From: a virus | Length of the DNA stretch: 13,459 nt | UHGV virus genome: UHGV-0077154 | Strand: one strand, 5' to 3' | Part shown: in pieces, positions 1 through 13,459 of the stretch | Layout: each line of letters begins with the position of its first letter | How positions within the stretch are numbered: position 1 is the first letter of the stretch | Translations under genes and position numbers: made by a program | The notes under the pieces: model-generated | Database searches by the model: none | What the model was told of the DNA's origin: nothing | What the model saw: only the letters and a program-made list of their open reading frames with translations

Positions 1-54
1 GAACGAGAGCTTCCCAAGCTCTATACGAGGGTTCGATTCCCTTCGCCCGCTCCA
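1..54 (+). tRNA. glyU: 3' portion of tRNA-Gly (anticodon CCC), truncated by the window edge; also the tRNA side of attL
   Basis: GAACGAGAGCTTCCCAAGCTCTATACGAGGGTTCGATTCCCTTCGCCCGCTCCA matches my memory of the 3' two-thirds of E. coli glyU. Anticodon stem AGAGC/GCTCT with loop TTCCCAA (anticodon CCC at 13-15), T-arm GGTTCGATTCC, encoded CCA ending at 54. The 5' part lies outside the window. Confidence 0.9.
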
Positions 55-61
55 GTCTCCT
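2..61. repeat. attL copy of the direct repeat (tRNA-Gly 3' end plus 7 nt downstream)
   Basis: Identical to 13376-13435. Similarity continues for 24 more nt with 3 mismatches (62-85 vs 13436-13459). Base 1 (g) continues the authentic tRNA body (..TAGAACGAG). Confidence 0.9.
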
Positions 62-621
62 GATAAATCAACAAGTTATGATTTATCAGTTAGTTACGTT
101 GCCCCGCTTTAGCAGGTACAACTTAAACTACCCATTGTTCTACGCCCGCACCTGTCGCGTGATTGGTCTGTGGTACAAGGGAGCATATCATCACGCTGGC
201 GGTGGTTCCAAGTTCTTACCGCGACAGTACAACAACGAACAAAAAGCCGCATACCTGGCATAACTCCCGAACTGATTGATCACACGCATTTAAGCCCGAT
301 GTGTGGCCCTATGAGCCACGTAAACAGGTGAATAGTGGTAATGCCCCGGTAGCTACAGATCCGGCTCTGCCAGCGCTTCGCTCACGCTCCGAAAGGTACA
401 CGAGCACCCTGATAAGGTGTGATCCATCTGACAATCTGATGATGTCGCTACGCTCCGCTTGTTGCTTGTACCACTAACGGGGCTTTATGGTTTCTATTGA
501 CTTAAATTAGATAGTTGCAAGGAAATAAACTAAGGATAATTTAAGTGTTGAGCGGTTTACTCATACTGCTTGAGGGCAGTATCATTACAACATTAATGGG
601 ATTTTTAAGGGACTGATGTGA

Positions 622-1257
622 ATGGCTGAGTATCATCCTGCGGTATTTAATGCTGAGGCTTTTAACTGTCCTTACTGCGGTGTATATGCCCGTCAGTTCT
701 GGCGCAATTTGTTTGGTAGCGGAAATGCGTTGGCAACTGTTGCGACTGCGTTCCGTATGTCAACATGTTCTCATTGTGATGAAGATTCTTATTGGTATGA
801 GGGCAATATGATGGTCCCTGCTGCTGGAAATGTGGAACTACCTAGTCCTGACATGCCTGAAGACTGCAAGTTCGACTATATGGAAGCAAGAAGCATCGTT
901 AATCTGTCCCCTAAAGGTGCTGCTGCACTCCTTCGCCTGAGTCTGCAAAAACTGATGGTCCACCTTGGCGAACCGGGTAAACATATTGACACGGACATAA
1001 AATCTCTCGTGGCTAAAGGCTTGTCTCCGTTGGTCCAAAGAGCCGCAGATATTTGTCGCATTGTCGGTAATCAGGCTGTTCACCCCGGAGAAATTAATCT
1101 TGATGATGACCCGCAATTAGCACATGGCCTCTTCAAATTACTGAATATTATTGTCACGGAACAAATTACCAGACCCAAAGAGGTTGAAAAGATGTTCAAT
1201 AGTATGCCTGAAAGGGCGTTGAAGGGTATTGAAAACAGAGATAAACCTAAAACTTAA
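622..1257 (+). CDS. Zn-ribbon + DUF4145-like (HEPN-related?) protein, 211 aa; candidate defence/abortive-infection cargo
   Basis: ATG at 622 is preceded by AAGGGA (607-612). The N-terminus has paired CxxC motifs (CPYC...CSHC). The C-terminal helical region [11 protein letters not shown]...IKSLVAKG...[16 protein letters not shown] fits the DUF4145 signature (R..GN.A.H) as I remember it. A possible promoter is TTGCAA (515-520), 16-bp spacer, TAATTT (537-542). Confidence 0.7.
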
Positions 1258-4897: not shown

Positions 4898-5078
4898 CCA
4901 TTCTCTTCTTTACGGTGCGAAGCACTTTACCAGAGGTAAACACCTCCGGTGCTATTAGCTTTACTCTGTTGGCAGCAACGCCACCAAACGAAATCGCCGT
5001 AAACACGGCTCCTTACCCCTGATCAATTCCATGATCGCAGGGGCGCACCCGCATATCTAACGCACAGGAGAGATGATT

Positions 5079-5264
5079 GTGAAACTGTCACTAGACGATG
5101 AAACATATGCAATTTTACGCGAAGAATCTGACCGTTTGGGGATGCCAGTTCCGAGGATGATCCGGAACATGTGCCAGAACCTGGCGAAACACATTCAGAA
5201 ACGCAATGAACAACCACTGACGAACCCACAGGGAGAACAACATGACAGAGACAGTAGAAGCTAA
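5079..5264 (+). CDS. Ribbon-helix-helix (CopG/Arc-type) DNA-binding protein, about 61 aa
   Basis: KLSLDDETYAILREESDRLGMPVPRMIRNMCQNLAKHI fits beta-strand/helix/helix RHH architecture. AGGAG (5066-5070) is 8 nt from GTG 5079 but only 2 nt from the ATG 5073 used by the ORF track. The 3' end overlaps the next gene by 23 nt. Confidence 0.65.
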   Translation: MKLSLDDETYAILREESDRLGMPVPRMIRNMCQNLAKHIQKRNEQPLTNPQGEQHDRDSRS

Positions 5265-5886
5265 TCTGCCAGACGAACAGGACGGCACTTTTGATCGCAA
5301 TTATACCGAGATTAAGCGCTTGAAAGTGTTGGTTGCCGACGATGGAACTAAAATTCCGTTCAGCGCGAACATGAAAGTAGTCTACGCCTACCTCTACACC
5401 TTCCAGACAAATAAAGAGCGGCGGAACTACCCTGAGCCAATTTATCCTAATATGGAAATAATCGCGTGGGAAAATGGCATTACTAAACCCACGGCGCAAA
5501 AGGCTGTGGATGATTTGATGCGGGCGGGGGTGTTGATTAAGGACCAAATTCAGGTTGGGAGCGGGTTTAAGTCCAACAATTACGTTGTGTTGAAACCCTC
5601 GAAAGTGGTGGCGCGTGGCGTCACTCCACCGCATCCAAATGCTTCTAAATATTCAACTGCCGAGGAGAGCGGTAAGAATGAACAAAAACGTGCTGTGGTG
5701 GAACCTGCCGCGCCTGTTGCTGGAAAACCAGACGGCATACCTGTTGTGGATATTCCTGTCGATGCTGATGTACCTGCCGATGATGATGCGGTGATCGGAG
5801 ACTTTAGTGATCCTTACCTTGATGCTGAAGTAAAAGAATGGCAGAAACAAAAACATAGTGGAGGATTGAATTGTGTGAACACGTAA
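5242..5886 (+). CDS. Winged-helix DNA-binding protein with an acidic/proline-rich C-terminal tail, 214 aa (possible origin-binding/initiator or regulator)
   Basis: GGGAG SD (5231-5235). The core VVYAYLYTF...MEIIAWENGITKPTAQKAVDDLMRAGVLIK looks like a wHTH of the plasmid/phage Rep-type helix-turn-helix family. The C-terminus PVVDIPVDADVPADDDAVIGDF looks disordered. Confidence 0.75.
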   Translation: MTETVEANLPDEQDGTFDRNYTEIKRLKVLVADDGTKIPFSANMKVVYAYLYTFQTNKERRNYPEPIYPNMEIIAWENGITKPTAQKAVDDLMRAGVLIKDQIQVGSGFKSNNYVVLKPSKVVARGVTPPHPNASKYSTAEESGKNEQKRAVVEPAAPVAGKPDGIPVVDIPVDADVPADDDAVIGDFSDPYLDAEVKEWQKQKHSGGLNCVNT

Positions 5887-6414: not shown

Positions 6415-6531
6415 ATGAACTTTGAAGCAATCCTTTCTTACCTGCCCGTTGTCTGGCTGGCGTATCGCTGCGTCCGTGATGGGCTGATCCTACTTTGGAG
6501 ACACCATAAAAATGACATTGAACAGCATTAA
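6415..6531 (+). CDS. Possible 38-aa single-TM peptide (uncertain)
   Basis: Internal ATG 6415 follows GGGAG (6407-6411). The product MNFEAILSYLPVVWLAYRCVRDGLILLW is hydrophobic. It fills the gap between two coupled genes and overlaps the next start by 20 nt. The track's longer GTG-6349 version has no SD. Confidence 0.3.
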   Translation: MNFEAILSYLPVVWLAYRCVRDGLILLWRHHKNDIEQH

Positions 6532-6892
6532 AAATGCTCTGTTTGCCGCTATGCACGGCATGACACCGGAGGAATACGAACTCCAAAAGGCGCGGGACAA
6601 TCTCAAGAGCGTCACCGATAACTTTCTGGATCAACATCCGGAGTTGCTCAAATCAGCCTCGTCTGACACCCCCACGGATAAACGGGGCGAAGCCCTCTCG
6701 CCAATGCGAGACACCTTTGGTGCTGAACAACGGATTAAAAAATCTTTGGGCGCTGATAGCCGTCCGGCGGTAAGTCATACCGCTGATCACATCGATCCTG
6801 AAATGCTGGCGAAAGCTAAAGCAGCGGCTGCTGCTCTCGCAAAATCTGACCCTGATCGTTACGGCAATATCATCAAGCAGCAGGGGGTGTGA
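6512..6892 (+). CDS. 126-aa acidic/Ala-rich protein of unknown function, translationally coupled to the 715-aa gene
   Basis: GGAGA (6497-6501) lies upstream of the ATG. The stop TGA (6890-6892) overlaps the ATG at 6892 (TGATG). The sequence looks largely helical or disordered. Confidence 0.7.
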   Translation: MTLNSIKNALFAAMHGMTPEEYELQKARDNLKSVTDNFLDQHPELLKSASSDTPTDKRGEALSPMRDTFGAEQRIKKSLGADSRPAVSHTADHIDPEMLAKAKAAAAALAKSDPDRYGNIIKQQGV

Positions 6893-9036
6893 TGGCGAAT
6901 GGCAATATCATAGTGACTGAAACCGTAAACGAGGTGACATGGTCTGTCGATCGGACAGCCTTCGGTCGCGCCCTGAAAGCTGTTAAATCCATCAAGGCTG
7001 CTCATGAGAAACCAGCTAAGGCGCTTGAGAAGGCCCAGAAGCGGACCGTCCAGAGTGAAGGCAAAGCCGCACTAGCAGCAGCGAAAGCCCAGACAGCGAA
7101 GCTACGCCAGGCTGAACAATTGTCTAAACAGCAACAGAAACAAGCTCAGATACAAGCCAAAATGGAGCGGGACGCAGTAGCCCACGCCAATAAAATGACC
7201 TCATTACAGGCGCGTCAGTTATCCCAACAGGAACAGGCAGCACGTCAGAATGCCCGTTTAGCAGCAATATCTGAAAAGGTGAGACAGGCGAGTCGCTCCC
7301 GCGCGATGACCTACACCCCAAACATGGGCGGTCAACATTACGATCCTGGTCTTGTTTCCCGTCAGACTGACGCAATGAACCGTGGTCACGGCGCTGTTGC
7401 TGCCGACATCGCAGCCACCAAAAAGGCGATGGCCCTGGAGGAGAAGCGCCAGCGTGAGAAAGAGGCAGGACTTAAGCGTGAGGTGACTTATTACAACAGT
7501 TTGCGCCGTAGCGCTTTGACTCTGGCAAACGTGAACGGCGCTGACGTTGCAACCCGTTATAAAGCGATCAGTGCAGCAAAAGAGGCACTCAAAGCCCAGA
7601 AAGAAGAGCGTTATACGGTCGAAGAGACCCGTTTCGAAATGGCCCGTATCACTACAGAATTACGCAAGCAGGCTCGTCTGCAACAACGTATTACCCGTGA
7701 GCAGAAAGCCGCAGGTGTTCGTGCTGGTCGTGTACGCACAGAAAGCCGTGGTGGAAGTGTAGGTCTGGCTGCCGCTGGTGTTGTTGGTGGTGCGGCGTTA
7801 GTAGGTAGTATGGGCGTTTCTCGTGTTGGTCAGACCCTTCAGGGAAGCCTTGAGCGTTCTCGCGATGTGAAAAAACTCCAGCAGTATGGGATCAGCAACC
7901 TTGAGTTCGCAGCACTTCAGGATCTATCAATGAGCCGTGTTGGTTACTCACTGAGTGCTGACAAGCTGGCTGACCTCAACAAGGACACAACCGAAAAGGC
8001 CGGGGAATTGCTGAATACTGGCTCTTTCAAACGTAACAAGAAAACTGGACAGGTGAATTTCAGCGGCGGTGGTGAGTTTGCAGATATCATCAATAACGTA
8101 CTGACCTCCACCAACGGCAACCAGAAGGTAGCCCAAAAGGTGATCGGGGAACTGCAAAAACTGGATTTTCCAACATTTATCACTTATCTAAAGCAATTAC
8201 AGAAAACTTTCGGCTGGACTGATCGACAGGTGCGACACCTGGCCGAGGCTGTGAATGATGGTTCGGTCTTCCTCGAAGTGTTCAATGATGAGGGGCAGGG
8301 ACTTATCCAGCGTATGAATCAACTCGCTTCTGAAGGATGGACCCTATCTGATGCACAGCAGGCCAACCTTGATAAGCTGGCAGCTTTGGGTGCTGAGTAC
8401 AGTCGCGTGCAGATGTCGCTTGCTGACCACTTCAGCGCCAGCTTCGTGCAGGGTCTGGGAGAATATGCAGCTAATACTGACACTCTACGTCAGAAGATGA
8501 CTGGACTGATCCCAATTTCCGATGCTCTCGGCGTTGCCCTTGGTGAGCTAACCACCAACATTCTCTCCTTCGCTGGTCGAGTCGGTGAAGAACTCAAGAA
8601 AGGCGCGACACTGCCGGATGCAGTCTACAACACCGTAGTGGATGACTCTGCAAATAGCACCGCCGATTGGATTAAGGAAAAGACCGGATTTGATCCACGC
8701 AGCATCGGTCAGACGCTCAAACAGATTTACCCGTGGCTGGATAGTTTCGCTCCGAGCAATATCGGCTCAGGCACGGCGTATAACGATCCAGCGCTAGCGT
8801 TGAATGTTCCTGGTTTCAACTCAATACAACCCCAGCAACCAACGTTTACGATTCCGACAATTGACAGCATGACGCAGCGACAGCCGATTCCTGTTGCGGT
8901 CACTGGCGAAGCTGAGATTAAACTCTCACCGCTTGATATTAACGTGAATGACGGCGCTATTAACGGTTTGATTGATACAAAACTGAGGAGCTATGAGCAG
9001 GCACAGAACAACATGATCCTTGGTATTGCTCAATGA
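6892..9036 (+). CDS. 715-aa coiled-coil + glycine-zipper TM + tape-measure-like domain protein
   Basis: Roughly residues 30-290 are Q/A/K/R-rich heptad-like sequence. GGSVGLAAAGVVGGAALVGSMGV is a Gly-zipper hydrophobic segment. The next ~200 aa (LADLNKDTTEKAGELLNTGS...GGGEFADIINNV...LKQLQKTFGWTDRQVRHLAEAVNDGSVFLEVFNDEGQGL...LSDAQQANLDKL) resemble the conserved core of phage tail tape-measure proteins as I recall it. Confidence 0.8.
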   Translation: MANGNIIVTETVNEVTWSVDRTAFGRALKAVKSIKAAHEKPAKALEKAQKRTVQSEGKAALAAAKAQTAKLRQAEQLSKQQQKQAQIQAKMERDAVAHANKMTSLQARQLSQQEQAARQNARLAAISEKVRQASRSRAMTYTPNMGGQHYDPGLVSRQTDAMNRGHGAVAADIAATKKAMALEEKRQREKEAGLKREVTYYNSLRRSALTLANVNGADVATRYKAISAAKEALKAQKEERYTVEETRFEMARITTELRKQARLQQRITREQKAAGVRAGRVRTESRGGSVGLAAAGVVGGAALVGSMGVSRVGQTLQGSLERSRDVKKLQQYGISNLEFAALQDLSMSRVGYSLSADKLADLNKDTTEKAGELLNTGSFKRNKKTGQVNFSGGGEFADIINNVLTSTNGNQKVAQKVIGELQKLDFPTFITYLKQLQKTFGWTDRQVRHLAEAVNDGSVFLEVFNDEGQGLIQRMNQLASEGWTLSDAQQANLDKLAALGAEYSRVQMSLADHFSASFVQGLGEYAANTDTLRQKMTGLIPISDALGVALGELTTNILSFAGRVGEELKKGATLPDAVYNTVVDDSANSTADWIKEKTGFDPRSIGQTLKQIYPWLDSFAPSNIGSGTAYNDPALALNVPGFNSIQPQQPTFTIPTIDSMTQRQPIPVAVTGEAEIKLSPLDINVNDGAINGLIDTKLRSYEQAQNNMILGIAQ

Positions 9037-9132
9037 TGAAACAGAGGGTGGCGAATTCGTCGCCCCTATCTCAACACCACAATGCGTATGTATCAAATTT
9101 AGCGACAAATCAAATACTTTTCGTGAAATTTG

Positions 9133-9161
9133 TTGTAAATGATAATCATTCGTGTTAAAAT
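9133..9161 (+). promoter_or_regulatory. Candidate sigma70 promoter with extended -10, heading the capsid-gene leader
   Basis: -35 TTGTAA (9133-9138), 17-bp spacer, TGTTAAAAT (9153-9161; TGn + TAAAAT), inside an AT-rich stretch just after the 715-aa gene. Confidence 0.45.
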
Positions 9162-9511
9162 AATATACAAGGTGAATTACAACAGCCAAATGTTTTTCCC
9201 TTCTCCTTAGGAATCAAAGTGCGCTTTTCCCAGAGCGCCTTTTCTCATACAGCCAATATCCGCACCCTCTCACGGTAAGGTTAGGCCATTGCCGCTGGCT
9301 GTATCAGAAAAGCATCGCAGAGCGATTAGCCAGCAGGCTAACCCGTTCTCGTGTGTAGAAAATTTCCACCTAAGGTGGATTTGCCAAAAGTCCTGTCCTC
9401 CTCGGCGGGCTGTCAGCCGGACACTAACGGCATCAGGTGGCAACGTTTTTGGGTCTCCTTACCCATTCTTTGGAGCGTTGCCGCCTCCTCATTCCTACCA
9501 GTGAAATTCAC

Positions 9512-9542
9512 ACCGGACGACTCTCCGTCCGGTCACTTTTTT
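9512..9542 (+). terminator. Intrinsic terminator candidate t1 in the capsid leader
   Basis: Stem ACCGGACG (9512-9519) pairs with CGTCCGGT (9526-9533), loop ACTCTC. CAC follows, then a T6 run (9537-9542). Confidence 0.5.
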
Positions 9543-9557
9543 CATCGGAACAATTCT

Positions 9558-9610
9558 AAAGGCTGGCCCTGTCGCCGTTTACGGCTCAAGCAGGCGCTGG
9601 CCTTTTGTTT
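9558..9610 (+). terminator. Intrinsic terminator candidate t2 (long GC-rich compound hairpin + U-run) just before the capsid-gene RBS
   Basis: 9561-9571 pairs with 9591-9602 (one bulge, two G-U pairs), with an inner hairpin GCCG-TTTA-CGGC (9574-9585). AAA (9558-9560) can pair with the following T-run, and TTTTGTTT lies at 9603-9610. Confidence 0.55.
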
Positions 9611-9645
9611 ACATAGCTATGTGAAATTTAACGGGAGTTAATTAT

Positions 9646-9987
9646 ATGAAAATGGGAAGCCTTGAGCGCTCTTACAATGACGTGATCGCGTATGCAGCCG
9701 ATCCGAATTTTGACCGCAAGACTATTACTGTCGATCTAGCTGTAGAAGTCCAGCCGGGTAGTTGCATTACCAGCACTGGAGCTGCTTATGTCTCTGGTGA
9801 TGACTGCCTGCTGGTCCTGAGCCACCACAGGGCCGAAGATGCTGCTCATATCATCGTTGCTGATCGCGGGATTTACATCAAACAAGACACCATCACCGCT
9901 GTTATGGGCGCTACCGCTGGCGCTAATGCTATTGCCGCACTCACCAAAACGGGCGCAATCCGTACTAGCGCACCGGACGCAGAATAA
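9646..9987 (+). CDS. Head decoration protein, lambda gpD-like, 113 aa
   Basis: GGGAG SD (9633-9637) is 8 nt from the ATG. Size, position immediately upstream of the gpE-like gene, and the pattern ...GDDCLLVLSHHRAEDAAHIIVADRGIYIKQDTI...TGAIRTS parallel lambda gpD (...[31 protein letters not shown]...GTAISIV, from memory). Confidence 0.6.
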   Translation: MKMGSLERSYNDVIAYAADPNFDRKTITVDLAVEVQPGSCITSTGAAYVSGDDCLLVLSHHRAEDAAHIIVADRGIYIKQDTITAVMGATAGANAIAALTKTGAIRTSAPDAE

Positions 9988-10005: not shown

Positions 10006-11040
10006 ATGGGACTATCAACCAATTTCAGCTACGCGGATTACACCAACACCTTTGTGAACATGGATGCAAAGAACACTTTGCTGTCCACGCTTAATGTTTT
10101 CAGTGATCGTCAGACTTCTGCAAGTCCGAAGGTGAGCCTCGATATCATTGATGAAGTCGCTCAGAAGGTGGCAAGCTCTGTTAATCGTTACGGTTCAGAG
10201 TGGTCAACCATTCCTAAGCGTAGCGCTAGCAATCACCTGATTGAAGCTCCACTTTATGCTTTTCAAGACCGGATTACAGCGGCAGACGTGCAACCATATC
10301 GCAAACCAGGCTCCGACCTGCAAATGTCTGTAATGGATGCGGTCACTTCTTCTGCTGTCGCAATGCACGATAAGTACATGCGTACTAAAGAGAAAATTTT
10401 CGCTGACGCACTCTTCCGAAATACTGTCGAAGCGACCTACACCCAGCAGCCGATCATTTCCTGGGAAGATGAATTTGGATACCAACAGGCAACCGGAACG
10501 ATCAAAACCAGCGTTAGCTCTGGTGACCCACTTCGCAGCCTCGATGATGCAGTAACCGCTGCTAAAGTGCGCATGGGGGGCCTGGCTGGTCAGCTTGATG
10601 GATTTATCCTGTTTGCAGGTAGCAATGTTTATCGCGGCATTAAGTATCACCCTGATGTTCGTCAGAATGTTCAGTTCGGTGTGCTTGATCGGGATGTTCT
10701 GTTTAATAAAGAAGTGCTTCCGGCATTCTCAACATTCATCATTGAAAATGTTCGAGTGGTGGAGGTCACGGATCAGGCACTTTACGGAATTGGTCCGGAT
10801 GAATCCTTCCTGGTTCCACGTTTCAGCCGCCCACTGTCCTCTGATATTGCTCTACCTTTCGGTTATGTAGCAACGGCTACCAGCCGCAATCTTGATCTGG
10901 CATTTGCTGATCCGGTTGATTTCCGTATCTGGAGCGTACAGGACAAGTTTAAGAACGTGGAGCTATTCGCGGAAAGCTCAATCTTGCCTGTGGTGTACCG
11001 TCCGGATTTCGTTACAAAACTGACGAACGACGCAGCGTAA
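10006..11040 (+). CDS. Major capsid protein, lambda gpE family-like, 344 aa
   Basis: AAGGAGAA SD. The length is close to lambda gpE (341 aa). It sits directly after a D-like gene. The C-terminal ...ESSILPVVYRPDFVTKL resembles gpE ...SAPLMLLADPDEFVSVQL (from memory). Confidence 0.75.
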   Translation: MGLSTNFSYADYTNTFVNMDAKNTLLSTLNVFSDRQTSASPKVSLDIIDEVAQKVASSVNRYGSEWSTIPKRSASNHLIEAPLYAFQDRITAADVQPYRKPGSDLQMSVMDAVTSSAVAMHDKYMRTKEKIFADALFRNTVEATYTQQPIISWEDEFGYQQATGTIKTSVSSGDPLRSLDDAVTAAKVRMGGLAGQLDGFILFAGSNVYRGIKYHPDVRQNVQFGVLDRDVLFNKEVLPAFSTFIIENVRVVEVTDQALYGIGPDESFLVPRFSRPLSSDIALPFGYVATATSRNLDLAFADPVDFRIWSVQDKFKNVELFAESSILPVVYRPDFVTKLTNDAA

Positions 11041-11121: not shown

Positions 11122-11325
11122 ATGAAAATTCAATTTCAGACTAACAACGGCTTCCCGTTGCTGACAGTTGCAGACGAGCGCGTTTTAGATTTTCTGAACG
11201 TTAGCGCAGTGTGTCGGTTCCTGAAGGTTCCGCGTTCCTCGTTCATGATGGACGTTGAGCAATACGGGCTTGAAAAGGCAATCAGTGAAGCCCTGCTGAA
11301 GTTAAGAAAGAATAAAAATTGTTAA
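11122..11325 (+). CDS. 67-aa HTH protein (AlpA/excisionase-like DNA-binding protein?)
   Basis: ATG 11122 follows GAGGTG (11110-11115). LNVSAVCRFLKVPRSSFMMDVEQYG resembles the MerR-type/excisionase HTH pattern. The upstream GTG-11077 extension in the track lacks an SD. Confidence 0.55.
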   Translation: MKIQFQTNNGFPLLTVADERVLDFLNVSAVCRFLKVPRSSFMMDVEQYGLEKAISEALLKLRKNKNC

Positions 11326-11509: not shown

Positions 11510-11719
11510 ATGAACTTTGATATGCGTACAAACCAAAATTGTGCATCTTTTTTTAACCCAGCAACCAAGGCGTTTGTCGTCGTCGATTCGTTTGACAACT
11601 ACGAGTTCGATGTTCGTGCTGGTACTTTATCACGCACTGAATTTGTAGGCACAATCACAGCTTCGAACGATGAAGAGTTGAACAAGAAATTAGCTGAGAT
11701 CACGGCTGCTCATATATGA
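11510..11719 (+). CDS. 69-aa protein, first gene of an overlapping pair (unknown; antitoxin-like position)
   Basis: Strong AGGAGG SD (11499-11504) lies 5 nt before the ATG. The stop overlaps the next start (ATGA at 11716-11719). The gene is AT-rich. Confidence 0.7.
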   Translation: MNFDMRTNQNCASFFNPATKAFVVVDSFDNYEFDVRAGTLSRTEFVGTITASNDEELNKKLAEITAAHI

Positions 11720-12090
11720 TAACTCAACAGCAAATTGATGATTTAGTTGCAGATATTAACGATATCTTAGAAGAAGATAGAGCTAGACTGAAGATGTCAT
11801 TTCATTTTGCTGTTGATAGACTCAATGATCAGCGTAACAAACCTCCAATCACGCTAGATGAATTGAGAGTGATTTTTACAAATTTCATTGAACAACACTT
11901 GCAGACCATTTTAGGCAAAGATGAGGGGTTCTCCTTCACTATTAAGTGCCAGAAATCAGGTATTGCTATACCTTGCGCCATAGAGCATGAACTTGAGATT
12001 GGTGCAACGTGGGTAGTACAGCAAGTGATCACCATCATGCGGAATCCGAACTTTAACCCATACCATGGTGATGTCATCTTCGAAATCTAA
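11716..12090 (+). CDS. 124-aa protein, second gene of the overlapping pair (unknown; toxin/effector-like position)
   Basis: Translationally coupled by the ATGA overlap and followed directly by a strong terminator. I recognise no motif. Confidence 0.7.
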   Translation: MITQQQIDDLVADINDILEEDRARLKMSFHFAVDRLNDQRNKPPITLDELRVIFTNFIEQHLQTILGKDEGFSFTIKCQKSGIAIPCAIEHELEIGATWVVQQVITIMRNPNFNPYHGDVIFEI

Positions 12091-12092
12091 GT

Positions 12093-12118
12093 AAAAAGGC
12101 GCAATAGCGCCTTTTTTT
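12093..12118. terminator. Bidirectional intrinsic terminator shared by the cassette and int
   Basis: AAAAA-GGCGC-AATA-GCGCC-TTTTTTT: a 5-bp GC stem (12098-12102 / 12107-12111) flanked by an A5 run and a T7 run. The int stop codon (12117-12119) lies in the T-run. Confidence 0.8.
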
Positions 12119-13313
12119 ACAAATCCGGATAACACGCCAACTCGACATACTCCGATAGTTCCTTCATCCCTGGCCCTTTGCTGTAGGTTCTGAATGCTTC
12201 GGTTTTCGCTTTTTGTTCGGTATGTCCAGTGATGGCTCCGATCCGTTGTTCTGGCACCCCTGCACGGTCTAAGCAGGTGATGAACATTCCCCGTAAGCTG
12301 TGAAAACATTGCCGATCTGTAGCGGTTGGCAATGTGCTGTCACGTAGCCGGGTAAACTTTTGGCTGTACCACGGACCCCGCTTACCATCCTTCCGAATGA
12401 TGTTATTAGACTGAGCCAGAAGATATTCACCGCTGTTATTTGCCAGATGCTTATCAACAATCCCCATCAGCAGCGAGTGGATCGGAACATACCGCACCCC
12501 GGCTACAGTCTTGGACTTGCTGACAAAGAAACATCTGACACCCTCCAACATTACAATTTCATCCCGCTTGATGCTGGCGATCTCATCAAGTCGCATTCCT
12601 GAATACAGCCCAATCAGTATGACATCGCGTAGAACGTCATCCGCTTCTCTGACAAGTGTTTGCAATTGTTCAGGTTCAAACGGCTGATAACTTTCTATCG
12701 TGCGACGTGCTTCGAGGTTATGACCGTGAAACGGGTTACTGTCGGGGATTGCGTCATATCGACGTTTGGCGAACTCGTACAGACTCCCTAAAGAGGTTAG
12801 CCAGTTTTGCACGGTCTGCGGTGCTGCCTTTTTCTGTTGGCCTTCAATGAAGTCTGTAACCGTTCTGCGTCCTATCTTGTTCAGACTAATATCAACTTTA
12901 CCGATACTCTGGAGAAATACTTCCACCGCTCGCGCGGATTTGCTGAGTGTGGAAAATGCCCGACGTTCACTATAAACCGTCATGTATTCATCACGGATGA
13001 CTGCCAACGTTGGGATAGGGGAGACTGCTACAGGCGTACTCTTGGCCTGTTTGATTGTGGTGTGGAGTGTGGTGATCGCATTCTGGATGCGAATGTCTTC
13101 CCGATCAGGATTCAACAGGGCTTTCAGATTGTTGAACTCAATCAACATGTGATTTCTGAAGTGACGAGCCTTAAGGATGTCTTTTGTCCCGGTGGATTTT
13201 CGCCAGGCTCGTTTGTTGTCAAACAGGTGACGCATGTACGCAGGTACAAAGACCTGAAAGATCCATACGCCCGAATGACTTTGAAAAAGATACTGATTGT
13301 TCTTGATAGACAT
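12117..13313 (-). CDS. int: Tyrosine recombinase / phage-type integrase, 398 aa
   Basis: Catalytic signature visible: ...YSGMRLDEI (Arg), HSLRGMF (His-x-x-Arg), ITGHTE (His), FRTYSKG (Tyr). It sits next to attR with its 5' end facing the tRNA-derived repeat. Confidence 0.95.
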   Translation of the reverse strand: MSIKNNQYLFQSHSGVWIFQVFVPAYMRHLFDNKRAWRKSTGTKDILKARHFRNHMLIEFNNLKALLNPDREDIRIQNAITTLHTTIKQAKSTPVAVSPIPTLAVIRDEYMTVYSERRAFSTLSKSARAVEVFLQSIGKVDISLNKIGRRTVTDFIEGQQKKAAPQTVQNWLTSLGSLYEFAKRRYDAIPDSNPFHGHNLEARRTIESYQPFEPEQLQTLVREADDVLRDVILIGLYSGMRLDEIASIKRDEIVMLEGVRCFFVSKSKTVAGVRYVPIHSLLMGIVDKHLANNSGEYLLAQSNNIIRKDGKRGPWYSQKFTRLRDSTLPTATDRQCFHSLRGMFITCLDRAGVPEQRIGAITGHTEQKAKTEAFRTYSKGPGMKELSEYVELACYPDL

Positions 13314-13375
13314 GATTTCGATCCTCTAAAATCACGCCATCAGGTACAGCCATATGTACAATGTCGGGATGGAGT

Positions 13376-13435
13376 AACGAGAGCTTCCCAAGCTCTATAC
13401 GAGGGTTCGATTCCCTTCGCCCGCTCCAGTCTCCT
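13376..13435. repeat. attR copy of the direct repeat: displaced 3' fragment of tRNA-Gly (13376-13428) plus 7 nt; not a functional tRNA
   Basis: Identical to 2-61. The sequence upstream (..GGGATGGAGT) diverges from the tRNA body (..AATGGTAG), so the acceptor 5' strand and D-arm are missing. Confidence 0.9.
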
Positions 13436-13459
13436 CATAAATTAACAAGTTATAATTTA

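Follow-up and report, generated by a model that had tools for sequence, protein, structure and literature searches.

The closest described counterparts of the element considered here, an integrated island in UHGV virus genome UHGV-0077154 that carries a gene for a tape measure protein (TMP) homologue, are the PLE satellites of the Vibrio cholerae phage ICP1. PLE1, PLE4 and PLE11 encode a TMP of their own (Nature 2026, PMC12987554). The PLE11 TMP is found in PLE virions, from which the ICP1 TMP is excluded (PMC12987554). Deletion of the PLE tmp genes lowers transduction by 96-99.9%, and PLE tails are ~10 nm shorter (PMC12987554). PLE11 also produces an anti-TMP protein, Rta, which its own TMP escapes (PMC12987554), and predicted tmp genes occur in PLE-like elements and in some cf-PICIs (PMC12987554, Extended Data Fig. 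10). EPIP satellites of Mycolicibacterium are reported to carry genes for a capsid protein and a TMP, without other tail genes, and to have a tail length unlike that of their helper (PMC12822802).

The DNA analysed here, referred to as the window, is the whole stretch of 13,459 nt from UHGV-0077154, which covers the island end to end. In the preliminary description of this DNA, a tape-measure-like gene standing alone in a satellite was considered odd; such an arrangement now has a precedent in the PLE satellites (PMC12987554). On balance, the island is probably a phage satellite, and its TMP probably becomes part of tails made by a helper phage.

Identity of the tape measure protein

The product of the gene at 6892-9036 is identified by the comparisons given here as a genuine, full-length TMP homologue. 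Profile searches against tape measure families, proposed as a check in the preliminary description, matched four PHROG TMP families over different parts of the protein (phrog_36805, 3e-17; phrog_5255, 5e-11; phrog_21358, 9e-6; phrog_2854, 3e-4). No Pfam or NCBIfam model matched the 714-aa protein, so that the TMP assignment is based on PHROGs, BLAST and alignments over the full length. In BLASTP the central domain was 32% identical to aa 271-529 of the protein in the TMP slot of phage FBKp34 (E 3e-38), and the TMP of phage BIS47 was also matched (E 5e-19). When phage genomes were searched by tblastn, aa 5-50 showed 63-69% identity to the TMP N-termini of Vequintavirinae, mainly Mydovirus, and also of Salmonella phage 40; aa 312-569 showed 31% identity to one protein of the Klebsiella phages FBKp34 and KP13-16; and aa 510-704 showed 30-40% identity to siphovirus TMPs. 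The FBKp34 protein, gp168 (647 aa), is encoded downstream of sheath, tube-size and small chaperone-size genes and upstream of baseplate spike and wedge genes, and the BIS47 match is the annotated TMP, located in the same genomic slot.

An exhaustive, profile-free search retrieved only 62 representative clusters, the full-length members of which comprise 600-730 aa and are 26-32% identical to nearly the whole query. In an alignment of 21 sequences the protein is colinear with its FBKp34 counterpart from the first residue to the last, through the N-terminal motif, the Gly-rich stretch, the central domain and the C-terminus; its end-to-end partners are FBKp34 gp168, P0137, P0202 and P0208. Three orthologues lie on phage contigs, in the order Phage_TAC_15, small open reading frame (ORF), TMP, Dit_like, Pam3_gp18 and hub. 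Given the full-length colinearity and the phage orthologues in the tail slot, the protein is therefore a TMP homologue over its full length, and the resemblance goes well beyond the motif string from which a TMP-like core had first been recognised (aa ~365-497, inside the central domain). At 714 aa it compares with 647-811 aa for related phage TMPs and 600-730 aa for island TMPs. In contrast to the phage orthologues, which lie between chaperone and baseplate or distal tail genes, the window gene has no tail cluster around it, as is expected for a satellite copy. When the remaining ORFs of the window were scanned with Pfam, PHROG and NCBIfam, the only hits were to capsid, integrase, replication-initiator, RHH and defence families, and no second tail gene emerged, in agreement with the preliminary description.

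The gene at 6892-9036 is more than a chance ORF, as there are 870 database homologues of the TMP and purifying selection acts over the whole gene (dN/dS 0.11-0.26 in comparisons with seven relatives; all five segments stay below 0.4). The three parts initially distinguished, a Q/A/K/R-rich helical part, a hydrophobic glycine segment and a motif-bearing domain, could all be located (Table 1). In the helical region (aa ~21-285) the fraction of Q, A, K, R and E is 0.44-0.72 per 50-aa block, and long helices are predicted, with low confidence, at aa 21-138, 153-212 and 243-282 of an AlphaFold2 model. The segment GGSVGLAAAGVVGGAALVGSMGV is the hydropathy peak of the protein (top 19-mer, Kyte-Doolittle 1.69), and this Gly-rich hydrophobic stretch occupies the same alignment columns in the FBKp34 TMP and all relatives; it would likely act as a membrane-inserting element after ejection. 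The central domain contains most of the invariant columns of the alignment, among them D361, D365, G394 and E452.

The AlphaFold2 model (mean pLDDT 49.8) consists mostly of long helices, with a better-defined domain at aa ~330-470, and a pLDDT of 62-85 is reached only in the central domain part. No match was obtained when the sequence was searched against the PDB, where a phiTE TMP fragment is deposited, nor by Foldseek of the model against the PDB. Against BFVD, Foldseek returned mostly TMP-named proteins, only one of them with E <0.001, and this is treated as weak support. In NCBI and UniRef, most close homologues are named "chemotaxis protein"; "hypothetical" also occurs in public annotation, and one Klebsiella homologue is named "TolA". 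The names "chemotaxis protein" and "TolA" are probably artefacts of the coiled coil, and they conceal the family when databases are searched by keyword.

Mosaic structure and exchange of the N-terminus

Similarity to phage TMPs is concentrated unevenly along the island proteins. The window TMP is 70% identical to that of the Mydovirus BIS47 in aa 1-40 and 14-27% identical elsewhere, rising to 32% near the C-terminus; its C-terminal ~75 aa and the last 56 aa of the BIS47 TMP are 28% identical (E 6e-4 in that pairwise comparison). Against the FBKp34 TMP, the median identity of 103 island TMPs from Klebsiella (~606 aa) is 88% in aa 1-40, 21% in the coiled coil, 22% in the hydrophobic region, 52% in the central domain and 59% in the last 47 aa (range 54-83%). 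By contrast, phage-context orthologues at equal overall identity (43-50%) diverge from the FBKp34 TMP evenly along their length.

The TMP of one related island (L010) is 90% identical to the window TMP overall, yet has a dN of 0.41 in aa 1-50, and its N-terminus best matches Seunavirus-type TMPs. The alignments indicate that the N-terminal cassette is swapped between otherwise near-identical island TMPs. In the window TMP, a Mydovirus-type N-terminus is joined to an FBKp34-type central domain, a combination found in no phage of the collections searched.

[quoted passage not shown] Based on this geometry, the conserved TMP ends are therefore the parts expected to contact helper proteins (PMC11972413). 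The ~40 N-terminal and ~45 C-terminal residues are pointed to as carriers of TMP assembly specificity, and from the type of cassette it could be possible to predict the phage that an island makes use of.

The TMPs of the window and of a related island in E. coli HB42 are 88-98% identical in aa 41-200 and 82-100% identical in aa 561-714, but only 40-52% identical in aa 201-560.

Island architecture

An 84-nt direct repeat is present at both ends of the window (2-85 versus 13376-13459, 96% identity). Rfam gave a tRNA match at 1-51 (model positions 21-71, 33.9 bits) and a weak one at 13365-13424; the tRNA at the left edge is read here as tRNA-Gly, with CCC in the anticodon loop. With terminal direct repeats at a tRNA, the window thus constitutes one complete integrated island. 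The features of a satellite were found together, namely an integrase, attachment repeats at a tRNA, a replication-initiator-like gene of its own and an incomplete set of virion genes. Portal, terminase, protease, sheath, tube, terminator and baseplate genes were not found in Pfam, PHROG and NCBIfam scans of the window, and because portal, terminase, protease, sheath, tube and baseplate genes are lacking, no virion would be made from the island alone. Nor was a recognisable chaperone or hub gene found in the window by family scans and, for the 126-aa gene upstream of the TMP gene, by hhalign.

Table 1. Features of the island, in window coordinates.
Feature	Position	Strand	Remarks
Left attachment repeat	1-85	+	3' part of tRNA gene, cut by window edge
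PD-T7-4 anti-phage defence gene (DUF4145)	622-1257	+	PADLOC PDLC04109 E 4e-98, full length; Pfam DUF4145
Small RHH-like ORF	5073-5264	+	Weak RHH_1 match
Replication-initiator-like gene	5242-5886	+	PHROG replication-initiation families, best phrog_270 8.4e-06
126-aa gene	6512-6892	+	Translationally coupled to TMP gene
TMP homologue	6892-9036	+	714 aa from ATG 6892; 715 aa from GTG 6889
N-terminal cassette of TMP, ~45 aa	6892-7026	+	Resembles Vequintavirinae TMP N-termini
Glycine-rich hydrophobic segment GGSVGLAAAGVVGGAALVGSMGV	7747-7821	+	aa 287-311 in 715-aa numbering
Central TMP domain	7849-8601	+	aa ~320-570; conserved in all relatives
C-terminal ~75 aa of TMP	8809-9033	+	Ends in predicted helix aa 688-713
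Terminator-like hairpins	9221-9238; 9512-9533	both; +	Consensus scan only
113-aa gene	9646-9987	+	Position and size class of head decoration protein
Major capsid protein, lambda gpE-type, HK97 fold	10006-11040	+	Pfam Phage_cap_E 4.6e-14, full length; phrog_29
Tyrosine integrase	12117-13313	-	Pfam Phage_integrase, DUF6538; phrog_1 1.2e-35
Right attachment repeat	13376-13459	+	Copy of tRNA 3' part

Since the PD-T7-4 match is full length, the island carries defence cargo. Three leftward ORFs separate the defence gene from a rightward block, which comprises, in order, the RHH-like ORF, the replication-initiator-like gene (DUF6945/HTH_36 in the equivalent of an E. coli relative), a 158-aa ORF, the 126-aa ORF and the TMP gene. 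The PD-T7-4 gene of the HB42 island is 82% identical to that of the window.

The block is followed by a gene-free gap of 609 nt (9037-9645) between the TMP gene and the capsid module; a promoter for the capsid operon, or a packaging site, may be located there. The terminator scan returned 12 sites in the region against 7.3 expected, which is weak evidence. The stretch 9205-9375 of the gap is not conserved in the HB42 island, and Rfam matched no family to the gap.

The island capsid protein is ~20-22% identical to phage capsid proteins (best 22%), and with no close phage relative it is therefore unusable for naming a helper. The 113-aa gene lies directly 5' of the capsid gene, as do decoration genes in FBKp34, BIS47, phiTE and L041, and it is kept together with the capsid gene in relatives; no Pfam, PHROG or NCBIfam family matched it, and its assignment as a decoration protein is by position alone.

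Three small ORFs lie between the capsid gene and the integrase. An ORF of ~65 aa follows the capsid gene every time (window 11122-11325, L004 9372-9563, L038 9739-9936). In L004 and L038 the TMP gene comes directly after it, and its three versions look alike by eye (MKI.F..., then a helix-turn-helix-like stretch). No family was found for it; conceivable functions are those of a regulator and of a factor for packaging specificity. Two small genes at 11510-12090 on the plus strand match phrog_14630 (3.6e-39) and phrog_14518 (1.4e-63); HB42 has a GNAT acetyltransferase in their place, which makes this a variable cargo slot.

The gene upstream of the TMP gene

The preliminary description noted that the TMP gene is translationally coupled (TGATG) to the upstream 126-aa gene and likened the two to chaperone/TMP pairs. 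The coupling is present, the upstream TGA (6890-6892) sharing bases with the ATG (6892-6894), and is kept between the small gene and the TMP gene in the relatives L001, L006, L008, L010 and L031. The analogy is not supported, as the upstream protein has no profile similarity to chaperones. A reading as a tail chaperone was rejected on an hhalign probability of 0.06% against five Phage_TAC_15-type chaperones of related phages, and a reading of the window gene as a scaffold fragment received no support either (0.36% against phage scaffolds). The 126-aa gene has no Pfam or PHROG match, and tblastn against phages gave none either. By homology it belongs to an island-specific family of small proteins, represented by 87 homologue clusters, all bacterial and without a Pfam domain.

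The equivalent gene of relatives is of a different kind. In related phages, portal and protease genes are followed by a phiTE_211-family protein in scaffold position, a decoration protein and the gpE-type capsid protein, with adaptor, terminator, sheath, tube, chaperone and TMP genes further 3'. The small gene 5' of the HB42 TMP gene matches the scaffold-position protein over its first ~60 aa (56% identity to BIS47_49 of BIS47, 45% to phiTE_211), and the L004 version is 75% identical to the N-terminus of the FBKp34 scaffold. The scaffold N-terminal motif seen in the relatives' equivalent is lacking in the 126-aa gene of the window. Judging by these similarities, the small gene of the relatives may encode a mini-scaffold, or a protein that competes for the binding partner of the scaffold N-terminus. 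In size it is ~110-120 aa in these relatives (L001 11353-11685; L004 7459-7824), and corresponds to only the first ~60-70 aa of the phiTE_211-family scaffold-position protein.

Distribution of the island family

TMP homologues that are at least 90% identical come from Enterobacter, Klebsiella, Escherichia, Cronobacter and Citrobacter, and distant ones (~30%) from Sodalis, Pantoea, Yersinia, Erwinia and Raoultella. Hundreds of genomes, belonging to more than 10 genera, have an intact ORF, and the gene is present in 38 of 5426 complete E. coli genomes. The related islands are ~13 kb in size; in each one examined a TMP homologue is accompanied by a capsid gene of the gpE type, most have an integrase, and in none of them were other tail genes found. 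The island L004 has a head-tail adaptor that is 51% identical to FBKp34 gp176.

By their identities, TMP and capsid modules are exchanged independently of each other. The TMP of L006 is 92% identical to that of the window, with a capsid protein only 32% identical, and L009 has a capsid protein 96% identical to that of the window and a TMP 70% identical. The relative position of the two modules also varies: in L004 and L038 the TMP gene is 3' of the capsid gene, and in L005 it lies on the opposite strand. Among the islands L006, L007, L009 and L010, those with 90-92% identical TMPs have capsid proteins only 32-38% identical, and the reverse was also seen.

In E. coli HB42 the island is located at tRNA-Thr next to proA, and its integrase is only 40% identical to that of the window. 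The window and HB42 differ in tRNA site and integrase, and the same cargo is therefore found on different integration modules.

Contigs of ~13.3 kb in Logan were considered as a possible excised circular form. This was rejected, as the 30-nt end overlap of L004 equals k-1. Given this overlap, which is that of a de Bruijn assembly, the ~13.3-kb contigs are best explained by attachment repeats that break short-read assemblies.

Proposed role of the TMP in helper tails

According to the reading favoured here, the island would be a complete integrative satellite of ~13.4 kb that depends on a helper for its virion. The island would supply its own capsid shell (the capsid protein and the likely decoration protein) together with the TMP, and the helper would be a large lytic myovirus of the Vequintavirinae or Stephanstirmvirinae kind. 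During infection the island TMP would join helper tail assembly, its C-terminal ~75 aa docking in the helper baseplate hub and seeding assembly, helper tube and sheath polymerising around its helical body, and its helper-like N-terminal ~40 residues making the head-proximal contacts. The outcome would be a chimeric tail on island-carrying particles, as in the PLE satellites of ICP1. After adsorption the TMP would be ejected, and the glycine-rich hydrophobic segment might help to form a conduit for DNA in the membrane. If the phiTE ratio applies (811 aa, ~102 nm), a tail built on the 714-aa TMP would be ~11 nm shorter than one built on a helper TMP of ~800 aa.

Among the functions offered in the preliminary description, replacement of the helper TMP fits best. 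It is favoured because the N-terminus matches that of a helper-type TMP and because a precedent exists in PLE (PMC12987554). Nothing found favours the scaffold, pilot or interference functions offered there. Besides the TMP ends, the island genes that resemble parts of lytic myoviruses are those for the small scaffold-like protein (75% in L004) and the adaptor (51% in L004).

Several points weigh against incorporation into helper tails. The N-terminus and the central domain resemble different phage groups, and no known phage has both. The matching of the ends is one-sided in the window TMP, clear at the N-terminus and weak at the C-terminus. In PLE the TMP is accompanied by a chaperone and a hub protein from the same satellite, whereas the window has no recognisable gene for either, so those of the helper would have to serve. 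Confidence in the structure model is low (mean pLDDT 49.8), and no solved structure matches.

A broader proposal, which we put forward tentatively and hold to be a serious possibility short of a probable one, is that the islands form an undescribed and widespread satellite family of Enterobacterales that parasitises large lytic myoviruses (Vequintavirinae / Stephanstirmvirinae) through terminal mimicry. The islands would retain their own lineage of TMP core, capsid, mini-scaffold and adaptor. Short end-cassettes (the N- and C-termini of the TMP and the N-terminus of the scaffold) would be grafted from the current helper and plug into its assembly lines, and a swap of cassette would amount to a switch of helper.

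It is also conceivable, though unlikely, that the TMP serves as an interference decoy that competes for the hub, chaperone and terminator of the helper, so that dead or tailless helper particles result and the bacterial population is protected, in place of any contribution to island transfer. A divergent body whose ends match the helper, as is observed, is what such a competitor would require, and the island bears a defence gene as well; blocks of tail assembly are common among satellites, for example the Tai systems (PMC11364771) and Rta of PLE11 (PMC12987554). For a decoy, however, docking ends would suffice, yet the full length of the gene, including central domain and hydrophobic segment, is under purifying selection, and the length remains in the range of working TMPs. 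An own capsid, moreover, makes sense only if tailed particles form. The PLE TMP is built into infectious particles, and both roles can coexist.

Less likely again is a role in the head, in which the protein would have been re-used outside the tail as a scaffold, size determinant or ejection/pilot protein of a small island capsid. The TMP gene adjoins the capsid module in the window, lies directly 3' of a gene whose relatives copy the N-terminus of a phage scaffold, and encodes a scaffold-like helical region of ~260 aa. Its position relative to the capsid genes varies among islands (L004, L038, L005), however, every TMP feature is kept in order with both ends included, and no similarity to scaffold proteins was found by Pfam and PHROG for the TMP or by hhalign for the neighbouring gene. 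That the gene is a functionless leftover of a decayed prophage tail cluster, as its being the sole tail gene and its public annotation as "chemotaxis protein" or "hypothetical" might suggest, is scarcely credible in view of an ORF intact in hundreds of genomes from more than 10 genera with dN/dS of 0.11-0.26, a conserved ~13-kb architecture with intact attachment repeats and integrase, and the lytic lifestyle of the related phages (the FBKp34, BIS47 and phiTE groups), which leave no prophages.

Comparison with known satellites and phages

The function of a satellite TMP was first demonstrated in 2026, in one Vibrio system. Incorporation of the island TMP into helper tails, if true, would extend satellite TMPs to common clinical Enterobacterales (Klebsiella, Enterobacter, E. 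coli and Cronobacter). It would likewise extend the range of helpers to Vequintavirinae and Stephanstirmvirinae, phages that, according to published work, are often isolated for phage therapy and biocontrol. As the islands carry defence genes (PD-T7-4 in the window), therapeutic phages that mobilised them would spread resistance to phages. A satellite-encoded TMP as such was already known; what we could not find described is the island family and its mosaic of a Mydovirus N-terminus and an FBKp34 core. The island family was not found in the literature covered, most subscription journals lying outside that coverage, so this is not proof of absence.

The TMPs of FBKp34 and KP13-16 (classified in Stephanstirmvirinae), BIS47 and phiTE (Certrevirus) have the same order of parts as the island TMP and are true homologues. 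Those of FBKp34, KP13-16 and the Vequintavirinae differ from it in being phage genes within complete tail clusters, after a Phage_TAC_15 chaperone. With cf-PICIs the island shares own capsids and tails taken from helpers. cf-PICIs encode a full head and packaging set with portal, protease, connectors and small terminase. The head genes of the island, in contrast, are only those for the capsid protein, the likely decoration protein and small accessory proteins. The window lacks the cf-PICI head module, and an adaptor is present in some relatives (L004). EPIP satellites are likened to the island by the description of their gene content (PMC12822802). They differ in having an actinobacterial host, a serine integrase, a temperate siphovirus helper, and small terminase and connector genes (PMC12822802).

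The PLE satellites have no detectable sequence relation to the island; the likeness is one of mechanism only, and a corresponding function here would be by analogy. Hosts of the island are Enterobacterales, not Vibrio, and no chaperone or hub gene was recognised, so that the defining set of PLE features is not present. A chaperone and a baseplate hub protein (TAC, BhuB) belong to the PLE gene set, and neither is recognisable in the island. PLE takes the capsid protein of its helper, whereas the island encodes its own, and a helper-matched N-terminal cassette is not described for PLE. What the two have in common is an integrated satellite of a lytic myovirus, a presumed one in the case of the island, with its own TMP and without a sheath or tube gene. 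In both, the satellite TMP is only ~20% identical to that of the helper over most of its length, and in both it is the shorter of the two: the PLE11 TMP by 95 aa relative to that of its helper, and the window TMP by 88 aa relative to the Mydovirus TMP that matches it at the N-terminus.

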